Below are positions 10,508-18,340 of a DNA stretch of 56,927 bases, one piece after another. Every line of letters begins with the position of its first letter. The first letter of the stretch is position 1. A program made the position numbers and the translations under genes. The DNA comes from Bacillales bacterium (GTDB lineage: Bacteria; Bacillota_I; Bacilli_A; RF39; UBA660): assembly GCA_016288635.1 (NCBI GenBank), contig JAEEKZ010000047.1, forward strand, positions 1 through 56,927, in the 5' to 3' direction. Under the pieces are notes generated by a model. The model was not told the origin of the DNA. It saw only the letters and a list, made by a program, of their open reading frames with translations, and made no database searches.

Positions 10508-11872
10508 ATGTACGAAAACAAAAAAATACATTTTATTGGTATTGGTGGCATAAGTATGTCAGGACTTGCATTAATGGTTTTAGATCATCATGCAACAGTA
10601 TCAGGAAGCGACATAACCGAATCAGAATTAACGGATAAATTAGAAAAGATAGGATGCATTATTAAATATGGACATCATCCTGAACTTATAGATGACGCTG
10701 ATATAGTTGTTTATACAGCTGCAGTACACGATGATGACCCTGAACTAATGCGTGCTAAAGAATTGAATAAAGAAACATATGAGAGAGCAGATTTCCTAGG
10801 TTTAATAACAAAAGAGTATAAAAACTGTATTTGTATTTCAGGAACTCATGGAAAATCTACAACAACAGGAATGACTTCCCTAGCCTTCTTAAAATCAGGA
10901 TTAAATCCTACAATTCACATTGGGGCTATTCTAGAACAAATCAATAGCAACACTAAAATTGGTTCAAAAGATTATCTTGTGATGGAAGCATGTGAATATG
11001 TTGATTCATTTCTAGCATTCCACCCTACTAGTGAAATCATACTTAATATTGATGACGATCATTTAGATTATTTTAAAAACGTTGATAATATTAAAAAATC
11101 ATTTAGAAAATTTACAAGCCTTCTACCTAATGATGGTTTTGTAGTTTTAAATATAGATGATGAAAATGCTAAGACTCTTGAAGATGTAGATAAAAAAGTA
11201 ATTACTTATGGAGTAAATAACGACGCTAATTATAGAGCTAAAAATATTGAGTTTAATGACTTAGGATGTGCAATGTTTGATATTTATCTTGATGATAAAT
11301 ATTTAACTCATTTAAATATTAATGTCATGGGAGAACATAACGTATATAATGCTCTAGCAAGTTTTGCATTATCCCATCAATACATTAATGATATTAATAG
11401 TATTAAAGAAGGTATTGAAGATTATAGAGGTGTTAAAAGAAGATTTGAACTAATAAAAGTTTTAGATAATGGTATTAAAATATATGATGATTATGCTCAT
11501 CACCCAACTGAAGTAATGTCTACACTTAAAACTTCAAAAGGAATTAAATGCCATGAAAGTTGGGCAGTATTCCAATCACATACTTTTTCAAGAACAGCCG
11601 CTCATCTCAAAGAACTTGCGGATATCTTAAAACAATTTGATCATGTAGTTATTGCCAAAATATATCCAGCTAGAGAAATAAATACATTTGGTATAAGCGA
11701 AGAAATGATTGTAGATGAAATCAAAAAAGATAATCCAAATGTTATCTATATAGATGATTTTGATAAAATCGTTGATTATCTAGAAGAAAACGTTAAAGAT
11801 AATGATCTAGTTATCACAATTGGAGCTGGTCCAATAGATAAAGTTGCTCATAAATACGCAAATAAAAATTAG
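10508..11872 (+). CDS. murC: UDP-N-acetylmuramate--L-alanine ligase
   Basis: HFIGIGGISMSGLA, GTHGKSTT, EACEY, DHLD, GVKRRF, DDYAHHP. Confidence 0.96.
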   Translation: MYENKKIHFIGIGGISMSGLALMVLDHHATVSGSDITESELTDKLEKIGCIIKYGHHPELIDDADIVVYTAAVHDDDPELMRAKELNKETYERADFLGLITKEYKNCICISGTHGKSTTTGMTSLAFLKSGLNPTIHIGAILEQINSNTKIGSKDYLVMEACEYVDSFLAFHPTSEIILNIDDDHLDYFKNVDNIKKSFRKFTSLLPNDGFVVLNIDDENAKTLEDVDKKVITYGVNNDANYRAKNIEFNDLGCAMFDIYLDDKYLTHLNINVMGEHNVYNALASFALSHQYINDINSIKEGIEDYRGVKRRFELIKVLDNGIKIYDDYAHHPTEVMSTLKTSKGIKCHESWAVFQSHTFSRTAAHLKELADILKQFDHVVIAKIYPAREINTFGISEEMIVDEIKKDNPNVIYIDDFDKIVDYLEENVKDNDLVITIGAGPIDKVAHKYANKN

Positions 11873-11895
11873 ATATTAAATATCTAATTTTTTTT
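11864..11895. terminator. Bidirectional terminator between murC and the large orphan gene
   Basis: AAAAATTAGATAT-taa-ATATCTAATTTTT between convergent stops. Confidence 0.7.
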
Positions 11896-14800
11896 ATCTT
11901 ATAATTCTTCCCTGCTTATATGCATTTTCGTATTCTAGTAATTCTTTTAATGCTCTTTTATCTCTATCAATAAAGTCTTGATATGTTCTACCATCACTAC
12001 ATACACAATAATACCAGTCATTGTTACAAACAAAATATACTACATTTTCTATATTGTTTACTAGACTAATTAAATATCCTGATGCATTAGATGATATATA
12101 TTCAAAAGGCATTCCATCTAAAGCTAATTTAACAGCATATATTCTATTAATAACATTCAACATATCATCTGTATTAGTTAAACATCTAACCTCATCTCTT
12201 CCTGGTGGATAATAAGGCATATTTTCTTCGGAAAAATCAAGAGGAACAAATGGTCTATCAGTTGCTGTAGTTGCTTGAACAACAGCATTATCTTTAGAAA
12301 TTGATGAGTAAAAATATTTCCATCCTTCATGAAGGCTTTCAACACCTAAATTAGCTTTTGGTTCATTTTCAAATCCATTTCTAGCAGAAATAAATACATT
12401 TTGAATAGGATATTCTGAAACACTACTTTCAGCGATTAAATCTTTAGCTACTTCATATGAGGCATTAACTAAAAACTGAGCAGTACTTGATAATGCCACA
12501 GGTATAGAGGATAACTCACTCATAAATACAGAATTACCATGTCTAAATCCAGATTCTTTTCCTAAATACTGTCCCGTACTTGCATCTTCAAATCGTATAT
12601 GAAAACCATTTTCATTTTCCATGCAAAAATCGTAAAGTTCTTCACCTACTCCACCAACACGCATACAAGAATCTACTCTTTCACCATGAGTAAAATTACA
12701 TGGATTAGTAAAATTAGCTACAACAGCTCTTATTTTAACAGAACCAATTTTATATACTTTATTAAATGTTGGAATAGTTACACTTTGTCTTTCAAATGCT
12801 TTTAATGTCCACTCAACCGATTCTCTTAATCTTTGATCTCCTTGCGTTTTACGATTTGCAGATAAAGCTCCCGGATTTTCATCAATTAATCTTGCATCTT
12901 CAGGAGTTAATATTTGCGAATATATATCAGAAGTTCTAGAATATCCTTTTGTTTTCTTGAATATAGAAGACAAGGTCATTACTCCGCCTCTAACATGTTT
13001 TTTCTTCTTTCTTTCCTCTTCTTCTTTTCTAAGAATTGGCATAAAATAAGACATAAAAGCAGCAATTTGTCTTTCATCTATTTCAAAATCCAAGCAATTA
13101 TTATCATTAATAAACTTAACCAACTCACTTGGTAATTTATGTAGTTTTCTCTTAGACATTATCTCTTTTAATTTTTGATAATAATATTCATTTTCAAGTA
13201 TACCCTTTAAAACATCTAATCTTAAATAAGACAATATTTTACAAATAGATAAACTTGATTTACCAGGTGAATAATTTTTCTTTAATTCATCATCTTTTTC
13301 AGTTAGTATTTTTTCTCTTATATCTTCATACCAAGCTGGTGATTCATTTTTAACCTTCGAAATTATTTCTAAACCTAATAATCTAAATTCAAACATTTTA
13401 GATGTAACAATATTAGTATCATTAGTTAATTTTGCATGTTTATTTTTATTAAACTTAATTAAATCTTGGATTAAATCGTCACTATAACCTTTTTCATGAC
13501 ATTTTCCTATCAAGACATTTACAAAACTTGTTTCATTAGGAAGAGTAACATCTTTTTCTAAAAAATAACTAAAGATAACCTGTTTAGCACTATTTTCATC
13601 AATTGATTCAATTAGTTTAATTTCTCTTCCAACATCATATGTATTTTTATATTCATCTCTTTTTTTATCAACATAATAATCCATAATATATTTTAGTATT
13701 TTTGAATATTTTTCAGGATCTCCATTGTTGATTTTATAAATAACAAGTTCTAGGAATTTTCTAGGATTACTTTTATATTTAAGGTCTATCTTTGCACCCA
13801 AATCCTTTTCAAGCATTTCAAAGAATACTCCATTTAGACTACGAGCAACATCACTAACAAGCTCACTATCTACTTTATTACCTTGAATTTGGTTTAATAG
13901 TATAGCAAAACTATCAACTATTGGTGCAAATTTTATAGAAAACTCATGTTGTTTAATATTATCATAAGCTGAATCTAAATCATCCATAGTATATCTTTTG
14001 TTAGGAAATAAAGCTATTAGTTTATCAAATAAACTTTCATTTAAACTAAGTAATTCTAATATGTTTTTATCATCAATATAATATAATAATTCTTTTCCAA
14101 CAATTGCTTTTAAGGCTTCAACATTATGCTTATTTAACTTCTTTTGCTTTACAACAAAATCCAAATAATATATTAATTCATCTGACTCTAAAGCATTTAC
14201 AAATAAAGCATTATTTTTTAAATATTCACGAGCAAAAATAAGTTCACGAAATTTTTTGTTTTCTAAAAATAAACTTCTTAATACCGATTTATTATAAGAC
14301 GACGAAACTTCCTCGTTATTAAAATATTCAAGAAATAATTCTTCATAAAAATCAGGATCATTTTTTCTAATTGCCCTAAATGAATTAGTAACAACAGTTC
14401 TTGTTTCATTAGCAAAAATATTTATATATTGTTTAAAATACGTTTTTATATTTTCAACACTATTAGTACTTACAAATATCTCAAATACTTTTAATGAGAT
14501 AGTGTCTGATGTGATAATTATTTCTCTAGACGGATCTGATTCTAAACTTTTCTTCAATAATTCAAGTATTCTATTATTAAATATATCCCCTTCAAATAAA
14601 TGAACCACCCTAGCATTGGGATTTCTAAGAACTGCTTCAATTATTGAAGCATCCCCTTCCTCACAACATATTTCTTTTCTATTTATCTTGTCAATATACG
14701 CTTTATCACTTGATTCAATATGTCCTCTAATTCTATCAACACACATTGAAGAATACTTTCCACTTCTTAATAAGTGTTCTATATTACCGGCTTCAATTAA

Positions 14801-15703
14801 TGCGTCAACAAATTCGTCATTATATAGATTATCTAATTTCTCTTTTGGATAATACTTTATAAAAGAACGAAAACTATAATCATTTTCTTTCATGTCTTTT
14901 ATTAGTTTTTCTCTTAAGTCTTCATCACTTATTAAATTAAAACCAACCATTTCATTAGCAAATAAATAAATTCCACTTGCATATAGCAAATCATAAATAT
15001 CAAATCTAGCAGAATAATCTAACTTGTTAACGAAGAAACGAAATTTACCTAATATGTCGTTACTATCCTCATTAATTAAATTAAGAAAATCTTTTGGAGC
15101 ACCCTCAGAAAACACCATGCGCATTTTATTAACAAATTCACTTTCAAATAAAATAGCATTTGCATCAAGTATTTTTCTAGTTATATAAACAATCATTATA
15201 GGATGGACATCTTTGATATTTGCAACAACCATATTAACATAATCATCCATATTTTCTGGAGATATAATAGATTCAAAATTAATTGCATCAAGCTTTTTTT
15301 CTTTAATTAAAGTTGCAAGATTAGCAACATCAAATACAATAGCGTTAGCAATATCAAACTTATCTTTAATTCCATCATACACATCTTTTAATTCTTTAAT
15401 ATGTGTTTTATTATCCGTAGATTTTAAACACTCTACCATTGTAGATGGACCATCGTAAGCATATAACAACCTGCATTTATTATATTGAAGTTTTAGTTCT
15501 TCATCATCACCTAAAATATCTATATCTCTTGAAAGAAAAAAATCAATAAAATCAAAGAATTCTTTTTTCAAAGTTTTTCTTCTTTTTTTAAACTCTTCAA
15601 TTACTTTTTTTCTTAATTCTTCATTATAAATTAGATAAGTTTTTTCTAGATCAGAAAAAAACAAATTATTATCACTTAATTGTTGTAGTATTTGTTTATC
15701 CAT
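11894..15703 (-). CDS. Large (1269 aa) hypothetical protein with a motif-rich C-terminal domain
   Basis: Uninterrupted ORF with AGGTGA RBS; no signal peptide or TM; helical-looking N-terminal two-thirds; C-terminal GERVDSCMRVGGVGE...NGFHIRF...SGFRHGN segment. Confidence 0.85.
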   Translation of the reverse strand: MDKQILQQLSDNNLFFSDLEKTYLIYNEELRKKVIEEFKKRRKTLKKEFFDFIDFFLSRDIDILGDDEELKLQYNKCRLLYAYDGPSTMVECLKSTDNKTHIKELKDVYDGIKDKFDIANAIVFDVANLATLIKEKKLDAINFESIISPENMDDYVNMVVANIKDVHPIMIVYITRKILDANAILFESEFVNKMRMVFSEGAPKDFLNLINEDSNDILGKFRFFVNKLDYSARFDIYDLLYASGIYLFANEMVGFNLISDEDLREKLIKDMKENDYSFRSFIKYYPKEKLDNLYNDEFVDALIEAGNIEHLLRSGKYSSMCVDRIRGHIESSDKAYIDKINRKEICCEEGDASIIEAVLRNPNARVVHLFEGDIFNNRILELLKKSLESDPSREIIITSDTISLKVFEIFVSTNSVENIKTYFKQYINIFANETRTVVTNSFRAIRKNDPDFYEELFLEYFNNEEVSSSYNKSVLRSLFLENKKFRELIFAREYLKNNALFVNALESDELIYYLDFVVKQKKLNKHNVEALKAIVGKELLYYIDDKNILELLSLNESLFDKLIALFPNKRYTMDDLDSAYDNIKQHEFSIKFAPIVDSFAILLNQIQGNKVDSELVSDVARSLNGVFFEMLEKDLGAKIDLKYKSNPRKFLELVIYKINNGDPEKYSKILKYIMDYYVDKKRDEYKNTYDVGREIKLIESIDENSAKQVIFSYFLEKDVTLPNETSFVNVLIGKCHEKGYSDDLIQDLIKFNKNKHAKLTNDTNIVTSKMFEFRLLGLEIISKVKNESPAWYEDIREKILTEKDDELKKNYSPGKSSLSICKILSYLRLDVLKGILENEYYYQKLKEIMSKRKLHKLPSELVKFINDNNCLDFEIDERQIAAFMSYFMPILRKEEEERKKKKHVRGGVMTLSSIFKKTKGYSRTSDIYSQILTPEDARLIDENPGALSANRKTQGDQRLRESVEWTLKAFERQSVTIPTFNKVYKIGSVKIRAVVANFTNPCNFTHGERVDSCMRVGGVGEELYDFCMENENGFHIRFEDASTGQYLGKESGFRHGNSVFMSELSSIPVALSSTAQFLVNASYEVAKDLIAESSVSEYPIQNVFISARNGFENEPKANLGVESLHEGWKYFYSSISKDNAVVQATTATDRPFVPLDFSEENMPYYPPGRDEVRCLTNTDDMLNVINRIYAVKLALDGMPFEYISSNASGYLISLVNNIENVVYFVCNNDWYYCVCSDGRTYQDFIDRDKRALKELLEYENAYKQGRIIR

Positions 15704-15757
15704 TCTATCACCTATCTTCTTCTATTATTTTATCACATTTTATTAATATATACCATA

Positions 15758-15771
15758 CGAACATCTGTTCG
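15758..15771. promoter_or_regulatory. LexA (Cheo/SOS) box upstream of the 1269-aa gene
   Basis: CGAACATCTGTTCG matches Gram-positive CGAAC-N4-GTTCG; overlaps a minus-strand TTGCGA -35-like element. Confidence 0.75.
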
Positions 15772-15777
15772 CAATAT

Positions 15778-15801
15778 AAAAGCACATATTGATATGTGCT
15801 T
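15778..15801 (-). terminator. Intrinsic terminator after valS
   Basis: AAGCACATAT-loop-ATATGTGCTT followed by T on the minus strand. Confidence 0.7.
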
Positions 15802-18340
15802 ATTTTAATAATTCTTCTAATTTTTTCTTTTCTTCTTCTAATTTAGTTCTATCCATTTCTACTATTTTAGCCGGTGCCTTATTAACATAATTTTCATTAG
15901 ATAATAAAGCTTCTCTTCTAGCAATAGAGGCCTGTAAAATCTTAATTTGTGATTCTTTTAAAATTCTATCTGCTTCAGATTCAACTTTTTCAAAAAAGAT
16001 TGTAGCTTTAATTCTATTTGAGAATACTTTATATGCTTTTATACCTAAAGGTTTATTAACAATATGATCTTTATCTATTTTTAATAATTTAACAATAATA
16101 TCATTATCATCTTCAGTATCAAACATTACTTTAAATTCTTTAGTCATATTATTCTCTGCTTTAATATTTCTAAATGATTTAATAAACTCTACAGAATCAT
16201 CTACTGCAACTTCTTCAGATTCAAATATATATTTCTTACTATATTTTGGATAAGCAGAAATCATAATAGATTCTTCATCTTTAACTGGTAACATTTGATA
16301 TATTTCCTCAGTTACAAATGGCATAAATGGATGTAGCATTTTTAAGATACCAGTTAAAACATAACATAACGTTGATTTGGTACTATCTGTATCAATTGAA
16401 TACTTAGCCATTTCTATATAATAATCACAGAAGTAATTCCAAGTAAATTCATATATACTTGCTCCAGCATTATTAAATTCATATTTATCCATAAATCTCT
16501 TTGATTCATGTAAACACTTTTCAAATTTAGTTAAAATCCATTTATCTTCAGGTTTTAAACTATCTAAATTAATCTCTTTTAACCCATCAATATTTGATAA
16601 AACAAATCTTGAAGCATTCCATATCTTATTAATATAGTTCCATGCAGATTTAATCTTTTCTTCATCAAATCTCATATCAGTTCCAGGTGCAACATCTGTA
16701 GCAAGATAATATCTTAATGCATCAGCACCATATTCTTTAACCATATCAAATGGATCTATACCATTGCCTAAACTTTTACTAAACTTTCTACCCTGTTTAT
16801 CACGAATTAAACCATGTATTAAACAATCTTCAAATGGTCTAGCACCAAGTAACTTTTCACCTTGGAAAGTCATTCTATTAACCCAGAAAGGTATAATATC
16901 ATAACCAGTTACTAAACATTGATTTGGATAATACTTCTTAACTAGCTCATCACTATCAGGCCATCCTAATGTAGCAAAAGGCCATAGAGCACTAGAGAAC
17001 CATGTATCAAGTACATCTTCATCTTGTACCCATCCTTCTCCTTCTGGAGCATCCATTCCTACATATACTTCATCATTTCTATACCATGCTGGAATTCTAT
17101 GACCCCACCATAGTTGTCTAGAAATACACCAATCATAAGTTATTTCCATCCAGTGATTCATAGTCTTTTCATATCTTGATGGTACAAAGTTAACTTTTCT
17201 ATCTTTATCTTTTTGAGTCTCTAATACTGTATCAGCAAGAGGTCTCATTTTAACAAACCATTGTCTCTTAACCATTGGTTCAACCATAACACCAGTTCTC
17301 TCTGAATGTCCAACTTCATGAACTAATGGTTCAATATCAATTAGTAAGTCTTGACTCTTTAAGTCTTCCAAAACAGCTTCACGACATTCTTCACGAGTCA
17401 TTCCAGCATATTTCTTACCGCAATTCTCATTCATTGTAGCATCATCATTCATAATACAAATACGTTCAAGATTGTGACGATTTCCTACTTCAAAGTCATT
17501 AGGGTCATGTGCTGGAGTAATCTTAACTACACCAGTACCTTTTTCCATATCAGCATGTTCATCAGTTATAACTGGAATAGGTTTATTTAAAATAGGTAAT
17601 ATAACATTTTTACCAACATACTTTTTATATCTTTCATCATTCTCATTAACAGCAACAGCAGTATCACCAAATAATGTTTCTGGTCTAGTTGTTGCAACAT
17701 CTAAGTATTCTTCACTACCTTCTAATTTATATTTAATATGATAGAAAGCGCTCTTTTCTTCACTATAGATAACTTCCTCATTAGATAGTGCAGTTTGTGC
17801 AACAGGATCCCAGTTAATTATCTTTTCACCTCTATAAATAAGGCCTTCATTATAATAATCAACAAATACTTTTCTAACAGCTTTTGATAGTCCTTCATCT
17901 AAAGTAAATCTTTCTTTTGTATAATCTAAAGCAATACCCATTTTAGCCCATTGCTGTCTAATGATATCACCATGTTCATGAGTCCAATCCCAACAAGCTT
18001 CTAAGAATTTTTCTCTTCCATATTCATATTTATTAATACCTTGGTCTTTAAGTCTTTTAACAACTTTAGCTTCCGTTGCTATTGCGGCATGATCCATTCC
18101 TGGAAGCCAAAAAGTATCATAACCTTCCATCTTCTTATATCTAATAATAATATCTTGTAAAGTTACGTCCCAAGCATGTCCTAAATGTAATACACCAGTA
18201 ACGTTAGGTGGTGGTAACACTATACAAAACGGTTCTTTCTTTGAATTGACATCACAATTAAAATATCCTTTGTTTAGCCAAAAATCATATTTGTTTTGCT
18301 CTACAATCTCAGGATTATACTTTTTTTCTAACTCTTTCAT
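15800..18340 (-). CDS. valS: Valine--tRNA ligase
   Basis: PPPNVTGVLHLGH, TTRPET, WCISRQLWWGH, DVLDTWFSS, KFSKS, C-terminal coiled coil. Confidence 0.98.
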   Translation of the reverse strand: MKELEKKYNPEIVEQNKYDFWLNKGYFNCDVNSKKEPFCIVLPPPNVTGVLHLGHAWDVTLQDIIIRYKKMEGYDTFWLPGMDHAAIATEAKVVKRLKDQGINKYEYGREKFLEACWDWTHEHGDIIRQQWAKMGIALDYTKERFTLDEGLSKAVRKVFVDYYNEGLIYRGEKIINWDPVAQTALSNEEVIYSEEKSAFYHIKYKLEGSEEYLDVATTRPETLFGDTAVAVNENDERYKKYVGKNVILPILNKPIPVITDEHADMEKGTGVVKITPAHDPNDFEVGNRHNLERICIMNDDATMNENCGKKYAGMTREECREAVLEDLKSQDLLIDIEPLVHEVGHSERTGVMVEPMVKRQWFVKMRPLADTVLETQKDKDRKVNFVPSRYEKTMNHWMEITYDWCISRQLWWGHRIPAWYRNDEVYVGMDAPEGEGWVQDEDVLDTWFSSALWPFATLGWPDSDELVKKYYPNQCLVTGYDIIPFWVNRMTFQGEKLLGARPFEDCLIHGLIRDKQGRKFSKSLGNGIDPFDMVKEYGADALRYYLATDVAPGTDMRFDEEKIKSAWNYINKIWNASRFVLSNIDGLKEINLDSLKPEDKWILTKFEKCLHESKRFMDKYEFNNAGASIYEFTWNYFCDYYIEMAKYSIDTDSTKSTLCYVLTGILKMLHPFMPFVTEEIYQMLPVKDEESIMISAYPKYSKKYIFESEEVAVDDSVEFIKSFRNIKAENNMTKEFKVMFDTEDDNDIIVKLLKIDKDHIVNKPLGIKAYKVFSNRIKATIFFEKVESEADRILKESQIKILQASIARREALLSNENYVNKAPAKIVEMDRTKLEEEKKKLEELLK

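Follow-up and report, generated by a model that had tools for sequence, protein, structure and literature searches.

The closest described counterpart of the element reported here is the Cheo box, the operator of LexA (DinR) in Bacillota, a 14-bp palindrome that overlaps the promoter, as at recA and lexA of Bacillus subtilis and at dinBox1 of phage GIL01. A second point of reference is the GNAT (GCN5-related N-acyltransferase) superfamily, which includes the small toxins TacT and AtaT of toxin-antitoxin pairs (roughly 170 aa). The consensus quoted for the B. subtilis operator is CGAAC(n)4GTTCG (PMC4551915). We analyzed a stretch of 56,927 nucleotides (the window), which is contig JAEEKZ010000047.1 (C53) of a Bacillales bacterium assembly, GCA_016288635.1 (1.14 Mb in 63 contigs, 28.6% G+C, rated 89.5% complete). 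In this window the same palindrome occurs at 15758-15771, again overlapping a candidate promoter, in front of a gene on the minus strand (P0001; 11894-15703) that encodes a giant protein of 1269 aa. To our knowledge, the SOS regulons described so far contain no counterpart of this giant gene. The operator itself belongs to a known kind, and four profile libraries (Pfam, NCBIfam, PHROGs, PADLOC) were searched for the family of the gene behind it with no match. The comparisons described below suggest that LexA probably regulates the giant gene.

The box reads CGAACAGATGTTCG on the gene strand and CGAACATCTGTTCG on the plus strand, with a perfect pair of palindromic arms (CGAAC-N4-GTTCG). It is contained in TTGCGAACAGATGTTCG, 26 bases downstream of the foot of the valS terminator hairpin, where the 14-mer occupies 15771-15758. 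The distance from the end of the box to the ATG (15703) is 55 nt, with an AGGTGA ribosome-binding site at 15708-15713. An initial sequence-only reading had proposed a Bacillota-type LexA operator ~55 nt upstream of the gene, overlapping the -35-like hexamer TTGCGA (15774-15769), and both the match and its position were borne out. A candidate sigma-70 promoter was detected at 15745-15774 on the minus strand (TTGCGA, 18 nt, TATATT) by consensus match alone (9/12 matches); its -35 and spacer lie under the box. Inspection by eye gave an alternative -10, TGGTATATA, at a 16-nt spacing after TTGCGA. An extended -10, TGATAAAAT (15727-15735, minus strand), was also read from the sequence and is identical in the ortholog described below. 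If TGATAAAAT were the real -10, the box would abut the -35 region, as in the recA promoter. Whichever -10 is true, the -35 region lies under the box or directly beside it.

Both lexA (LexA_DNA_bind domain, 67.9 bits, contig C24) and recA (RecA, 463.9 bits, contig C57) are present in the genome. The LexA translation contains ITAGSP, which we take to be the cleavage site, as well as SGNSM and ATLK, presumably the motifs of the catalytic Ser and Lys, at the expected positions. To define the operator in this lineage, recA and lexA loci were collected from 30 relatives belonging to the same family. Their boxes follow the B. subtilis-type consensus CGAAC(n)4GTTCG. The recA box has the form A/GAACAAATGTTCG and lies 61-75 nt before the start in most of the 30 relatives. 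The lexA promoters of 27 relatives carry one or two boxes, usually two, 44-95 nt upstream: a distal box, cacGAACAtttGTTCgtg, at 70-95 nt, and a proximal box at 44-63 nt that overlaps a TTGACA -35. Here and in the relatives, recA, lexA and a Y-family polymerase gene carry the motif seen at the giant gene.

From 73 recA and lexA promoter sites of the relatives, with the own genome excluded, we derived a symmetric matrix of 16 positions (training median 18.0 bits). The giant-gene box (C53:15757) scored 18.7 bits, rank 4 genome-wide, and exceeded the sites of the genome's own recA (C57:9761, 17.4 bits), Y-family polymerase gene (C56:2657, 16.7 bits) and lexA (C24:4639, 15.1 bits). A site before a small gene (C27:4387) scored 16.9 bits. 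Within the window, the next best score was 9.7 bits and the box was the sole match with at most one mismatch, in agreement with the initial observation that the other intergenic regions hold no comparable box. Genome-wide there are two perfect sites, the giant-gene box and one within the gyrA coding sequence, and three sites with one mismatch, one of them ~55 nt before the Y-family polymerase gene (IMS and IMS_C domains). Four sites reached 18.7 bits or more, compared to expected numbers of 0.30 (independent-base model), 0.2 (Markov order 1) and 0.05 (Markov order 3); for 16.7 bits or more, seven sites were seen and 1.5, 1.15 and 1.0 expected, respectively. The giant-gene box is therefore on a par with the accepted SOS operators of the organism and unlikely to be random. 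No clear box was found upstream of uvrB, which is split over two contig ends.

The lexA promoter of the genome itself (C24:4600-4700) has a degenerate proximal box, CAAATATTTGTTTG, over its TTGACA -35, which is the 15.1-bit site, and is without the distal box present in most relatives.

The box might instead be a chance or relic palindrome without regulatory role, in front of a gene that is constitutive like its paralogs. Several results point this way and weigh against LexA control. Three of the four best matrix sites lie outside classical SOS promoters, and the score alone is therefore no proof of regulation: C43:855 (23.3 bits) lies within the gyrA coding sequence, C43:1709 (21.1 bits) about 45 nt before the signal recognition particle (SRP) RNA, and C56:18893 (19.4 bits) within a small DUF1292-like open reading frame (ORF; family named from reading the translation). 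Thus, sites at least as good as the giant-gene box occur within coding sequence. Moreover, 11 of 100 shuffles of the window contained at least one match with no more than one mismatch. Among 20 sequencing runs containing the locus, which are animal gut metagenomes from 11 studies, none is listed as an RNA run; all are listed as DNA or of unknown kind. On the other hand, the expectation for such sites is only ~0.05-0.3 genome-wide, and much lower still if they must lie no more than 100 nt from a start codon. Chance would also have to account for the overlap with the -35, which resembles the proximal lexA boxes of the relatives, and for a score above those of the recA, polymerase and lexA sites of the same genome.

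Comparison with an ortholog bears on the same question. The sole syntenic ortholog found, on a JGI metagenome contig (L146), shares 68% identity across the full 1269 residues and keeps the gene neighborhood, with valS upstream and murC-sized and 458-aa ORFs downstream. It carries a box, ACAAACATTCGTTCGT (19.7 bits), in the same place; nothing else in its 7.7 kb scores above 7 bits. Between the two loci, the box arms differ at 1/10 positions (G to A, tolerated by the matrix), the spacer at 3/4 and the remaining intergenic region at 18/83, while a fraction of 0.53 of the synonymous sites of the giant gene differ. Conservation of the arms is far stronger than at neutral sites (P about 0.006), and stronger than in the spacer (one-sided Fisher P about 0.04, hand calculation). 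That the arms persist even though three of four spacer bases have changed speaks against a relic. However, they show no conservation beyond that of the promoter around them (P = 0.33), and with one ortholog only, the support is modest. Contigs from four of the metagenome runs cover the locus in fragments. One of these, with 5 differences, bridges the promoter; among the differences listed, none falls at 15594-15840, which says nothing about conservation.

The ortholog has a frameshift (L146:1590-1630), near the conserved 'GKFRFF', which splits the gene into ORFs of 230 and 1033 aa. This could reflect an assembly error or a decaying copy.

Beyond the ortholog pair, the box was absent. For distant homologs (28-42% identity in the C-terminal domain), 56 complete loci were taken from species-representative genomes, and in the 400 nt upstream of these no site reached 13 bits. 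Likewise, no site precedes nine strong matches from the same family, a single match that came from searching the relatives, or either of the in-genome paralogs (the set of 56 loci and this second set may overlap). Of the homologs, whose upstream regions the initial reading had proposed to compare, the one syntenic ortholog keeps the box (1/1), and it is missing at the distant loci (0/56), the same-family matches (0/9) and the paralogs (0/2); for distant homologs, the outcome goes against that reading. Closer orthologs were not found among species-representative genomes: in 400 further genomes of the family, a search with the N-terminal 899 aa gave no match at E<=1e-20. The upstream regions of the 56 homologs share no other regulatory word, T-runs and -10-like words being the only ones enriched, and contain no match to CIRCE and one CtsR-like word. 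Because homologs and paralogs are without the site, SOS control would be a trait of the ortholog lineage and not of the family, and by this comparison LexA control appears to have been acquired locally, in this lineage only. Weighing both sides, we consider a chance or relic palindrome unlikely and favor an operator that is used by LexA.

The giant gene forms a single-gene transcription unit. It sits 3' of valS (15800-18340, minus strand), and its own 3' end faces the convergent murC. The intrinsic terminator of valS (15780-15801, minus strand), a 9-bp hairpin followed by the T-run TTATATT, was recovered by both terminator scan and folding (-9.7 kcal/mol, z -3.64). Its stem is kept in the ortholog, where changes are confined to the loop region. 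The upstream insulation and monocistronic organization initially proposed were thus confirmed. As for closure by a bidirectional terminator on the murC side, a hairpin at 11865-11891 folds on either strand (-7.7 and -7.9 kcal/mol, z about -3.8), but it is AT-only and, with zero G-C pairs, was not picked up by the terminator scan, which demands three. A weak bidirectional terminator at this position is accordingly plausible. The G+C content of the giant gene and its G+C content at third codon positions (GC3) are similar to those of the neighboring genes and of the genome. Compared to the ortholog, the ratio of non-synonymous to synonymous changes (dN/dS) is 0.23 over 1033 codons, indicating ordinary purifying selection.

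The valS locus is rearranged within the genus. In a second genome of the same genus (G001, 96% complete), the genes after valS have the sizes of hrcA, grpE and dnaK and are accompanied by a CIRCE-like TTAGCACT element, in place of the giant gene (L159; G001:C1:143000-150000). Two queries detected no member of the giant-protein family anywhere in G001.

We next consider the family of the protein, which had been regarded as an orphan. This designation is refuted. A word-indexed search returned six relatives, of which three are close (at 89%, 66% and 66% identity) and three distant. With the last 468 residues as query, HMMER found 375 cluster representatives at E<=0.001, 233 of them at E<=1e-30. 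Most of the 375 are 1100-1500 aa long and match at the C-terminus, and nearly all are from uncultured gut Bacilli. A genome scan located 78 loci, mostly labeled uncultured Bacilli, Tenericutes, Erysipelotrichaceae or Candidatus Coprovivens, and in a few cases Muribaculaceae, Bacteroidaceae or Clostridia-type. The distribution within the order is patchy, with a match at E<=1e-10 in 31/301 genomes (own genome included), and several genomes hold three or four copies. The present genome has three: the window copy, C8:6774-10562 (plus strand, 32% identity) and C52:29122-32709 (minus strand, 28% identity). Together they make up ~1% of the assembly; with three copies in 1.14 Mb, the family thus takes ~1% of the genome's coding capacity. 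In some genomes, two family members are close together, as on a public contig that contains both L018 and L028. Directly after the family copy in L018 there is a 1241-aa ORF (L018:7315-11040).

The genes beside the homologs (55 downstream, 53 upstream) are varied housekeeping genes and not defense islands or mobile elements. The commonest neighbor is a D-Ala-D-Ala carboxypeptidase downstream (9/55); other cell-wall neighbors are a Mur ligase (2/55) and FemAB (1/55 downstream, 1/53 upstream). No relative of the family was found in 2.9 million viral contigs.

Sequence profiles did not name the family. Pfam gave 0 families on the whole protein at E<=0.01, NCBIfam no match to the protein or its relatives, and PADLOC and PHROG 0 families each for three family members; thus no defense, phage or repair model matches. 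A PDB sequence search with the domain profile returned nothing at E<=1. Look-alikes from a protein language model were unnamed clusters, with EcoRI_methylase, PcfJ and PBECR4 as weak named leads at 0.79-0.89. The PcfJ-like domain (PF14284; language-model score 0.79-0.83) was rejected, as hhalign gave a probability of 0.13% (43 vs 3 domains, the PcfJ alignment being shallow). The portions of the literature on RF39 giant proteins and on Firmicutes LexA regulons that were accessible (PMC3998124) contained no prior description of the family.

Structure prediction divided the protein into two parts. Residues 1-899 (13007-15703, minus strand) were modeled by AlphaFold as an all-alpha solenoid consisting almost only of helices, with a mean predicted local distance difference test (pLDDT) score of 85.3. 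In the family, residues ~480-900 are conserved and residues 1-480 poorly so. A Foldseek search of the solenoid against the PDB gave no match at E<=0.001; the best rows were HEAT, PPR and PUF-type repeats (E 0.01-0.07). No segment of the protein is hydrophobic enough for a membrane helix, the top Kyte-Doolittle mean over 19 residues being 1.31.

The conserved C-terminal domain (residues about 974-1269; 11897-12784, minus strand) has a GNAT-like fold. In a model of residues 900-1269 (pLDDT 81.2), it comprises a core (residues 974-1151) and a second lobe (residues 1169-1269) that resembles the N-terminal half of GNATs. With this model, Foldseek returned six PDB matches at E<=0.001, each of them a GNAT acetyltransferase (best E 2.5e-4); the weaker matches listed, and those from a viral structure library, are also GNAT. 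Structural alignment with VIA-align gave the same result: all 50 rows listed belong to the GNAT superfamily (Z 6.3-8.4, covering model residues 75-252), and the second lobe (model residues 270-370) matches GNAT N-terminal halves. Similar structures include YhbS of E. coli (4rs2_B; 151 residues aligned, Z 7.8), AAC(2')-Ia (5us1_A; 150 aligned, Z 7.2) and, for the second lobe, the N-terminal half of 2gan_B (Z 8.4, 101 aligned). The match to the tandem-GNAT mycothiol synthase MshD (1ozp) spans both lobes. Note that Z values below 8 may reflect a common arrangement, since unrelated models reach Z 6-8 with VIA-align, and we therefore refer to the fold as GNAT-like and not as GNAT.

The domain differs from GNATs in sequence: identity is 2-15% in the listed VIA-align rows, and the domain is fused to a 900-aa solenoid and has motifs of its own, GER..C.R..G and FR.GN. 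The first of these, G1007-E-R...C1013-x-R1015..G1018 (HGERVDSCMRVGGVG; 12644-12685, minus strand), is invariant in 43/43 aligned domains. Altogether 16 positions are invariant in this set: G1007, E1008, R1009, C1013, R1015, G1018, F1026, F1034, G1052, F1053, R1054, G1056, N1057, N1102, R1169 and D1229. Nine of these have charged or polar side chains (one E, four R, one C, two N and one D), and H1035 is nearly invariant. The most conserved stretch, CMRVGGVG, lies in the loop C1013-G1019, which was modeled with a pLDDT of less than 50 (model residues 114-120).

Against a GNAT-type enzyme stand, besides the modest Z values, the absence of a GNAT profile match to the whole protein (Pfam, E<=0.01) and a search with the 43 domains at E<=10, in which the 25 most-matched of 28 families include no acetyltransferase. 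Furthermore, the R/Q-x-x-G-x-G/A signature that binds the coenzyme A (CoA) pyrophosphate is not evident at its usual place, the predicted beta4-alpha3 junction (residues about 1061-1074, by our own mapping of strands). An R1015-x-x-G-x-G1020 string sits in the alpha1-alpha2 region, in a low-confidence loop. We infer catalysis, and with it the nature of any substrate; an enzymatic, GNAT-type function of the domain is a tentative assignment, which we lean slightly against.

That the canonical CoA signature was not seen at its expected place would fit a non-enzymatic scaffold, in which the GNAT-like domain is a binding module that no longer catalyzes and the family has a housekeeping role in these reduced genomes, perhaps linked to the envelope, one copy having come under LexA control to adjust its dosage after damage. 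Three old paralogs (28-32% identity) in a genome of 1.14 Mb would be consistent with such a role, as would the cell-wall genes beside some homologs (above) and the convergent murC at this locus. However, cell-wall neighbors may merely reflect synteny common to related genomes, and 16 invariant positions, nine of them charged or polar, are typical of an active or ligand-binding site. We therefore regard a pure scaffold as quite unlikely.

The GNAT-like fold also raises the question of a toxin. The protein could be an SOS-triggered effector of growth arrest or suicide. As such it might resemble the small GNAT toxins, an acyltransferase with tRNA or the translation machinery as its target, or it might defend against phages by abortive infection, being turned on by the DNA damage that a prophage or an attacking phage causes. 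A possible acyltransferase fold and stress-linked expression are shared with TacT and AtaT, a functional analogy alone; the giant protein is 1269 aa long and has no partner gene. The weak fold matches of the solenoid are mostly RNA-binding repeats (PPR, PUF), though not significant, and the patchy distribution, the lack of a member in G001 and the multiple copies in several genomes would suit such an effector. In contrast, the gene is monocistronic, with no co-transcribed partner and no antitoxin-sized gene adjacent to it. The lack of PADLOC, PHROG and viral relatives, the housekeeping neighborhoods of the homologs, the genome-like G+C and GC3 and the dN/dS of 0.23 all argue in the same direction. 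The sequence-only reading had listed a toxin or anti-phage effector among its options, next to a new repair factor; all three are guesses, and we judge a toxin or anti-phage effector improbable.

Taken together, we moderately favor the reading of the locus as encoding a LexA-repressed, damage-induced giant protein of an undescribed family with an acyl-transfer-type module, a grading set by the core of this statement, which is regulation and family placement. In this model, LexA would occupy the promoter of the single-gene unit. We infer LexA binding and induction by damage as follows: DNA damage would activate RecA, LexA would cleave itself, and the freed promoter would allow production of the 1269-aa protein. 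The regulon would be small, with recA, lexA, the Y-family polymerase gene and the giant gene as members, probably joined by one or two small genes. The protein is predicted to be cytoplasmic, as first suggested. Its helical solenoid of ~900 residues may be a platform to which a large partner binds, and the C-terminal domain of ~300 residues may be a catalytic or ligand-binding module of the acyl-transfer type. A further-reaching version, which we consider a long shot, is that the family constitutes a new class of giant solenoid-plus-acyltransferase-like enzymes confined to gut Bacilli with reduced genomes, one copy of which became, in this lineage, an SOS effector that covalently modifies a large target such as tRNA, the ribosome or an envelope precursor and thereby pauses growth during repair. 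If true, the giant protein would do the job of the SulA/YneA checkpoint by a wholly different chemistry.

The site, its rank and its regulon context are direct observations, as are the family and the resemblance in fold. The strongest promoter-located LexA site of a 1.1-Mb genome precedes an uncharacterized giant gene and not a repair gene, which illustrates that SOS regulons outside model organisms still give unexpected members. The family comprises at least 375 clusters (at 50% identity), with up to three or four copies per ~1-Mb genome. The link to SOS offers an experimental handle, induction by DNA damage, on an otherwise opaque family from uncultured organisms.

Other high-scoring matrix sites also lie near genes of interest. 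The two top sites, C43:855-870 and C43:1709-1724, are 850 bp apart on a 2.7-kb contig. The former falls in the C-terminal coding region of gyrA; the latter comes immediately after a TTGACG/TATAAT promoter, and the SRP RNA (Rfam RF00169, 52.6 bits) lies ~45 nt further on. The boxed Y-family polymerase gene overlaps at its end by 4 bases with a 137-aa ORF (C56:4216-4629) that has no Pfam match and could be a YolD/UmuD-like accessory factor. Finally, boxes at C27:4387-4402 (16.9 bits) and C8:28663-28678 (13.7 bits) each overlap the promoter of a very small gene, neither gene having a Pfam match. Their products are a basic helical peptide of 56 aa and a peptide of 56-62 aa with one hydrophobic helix, making these genes candidates for SOS division inhibitors or small toxins.

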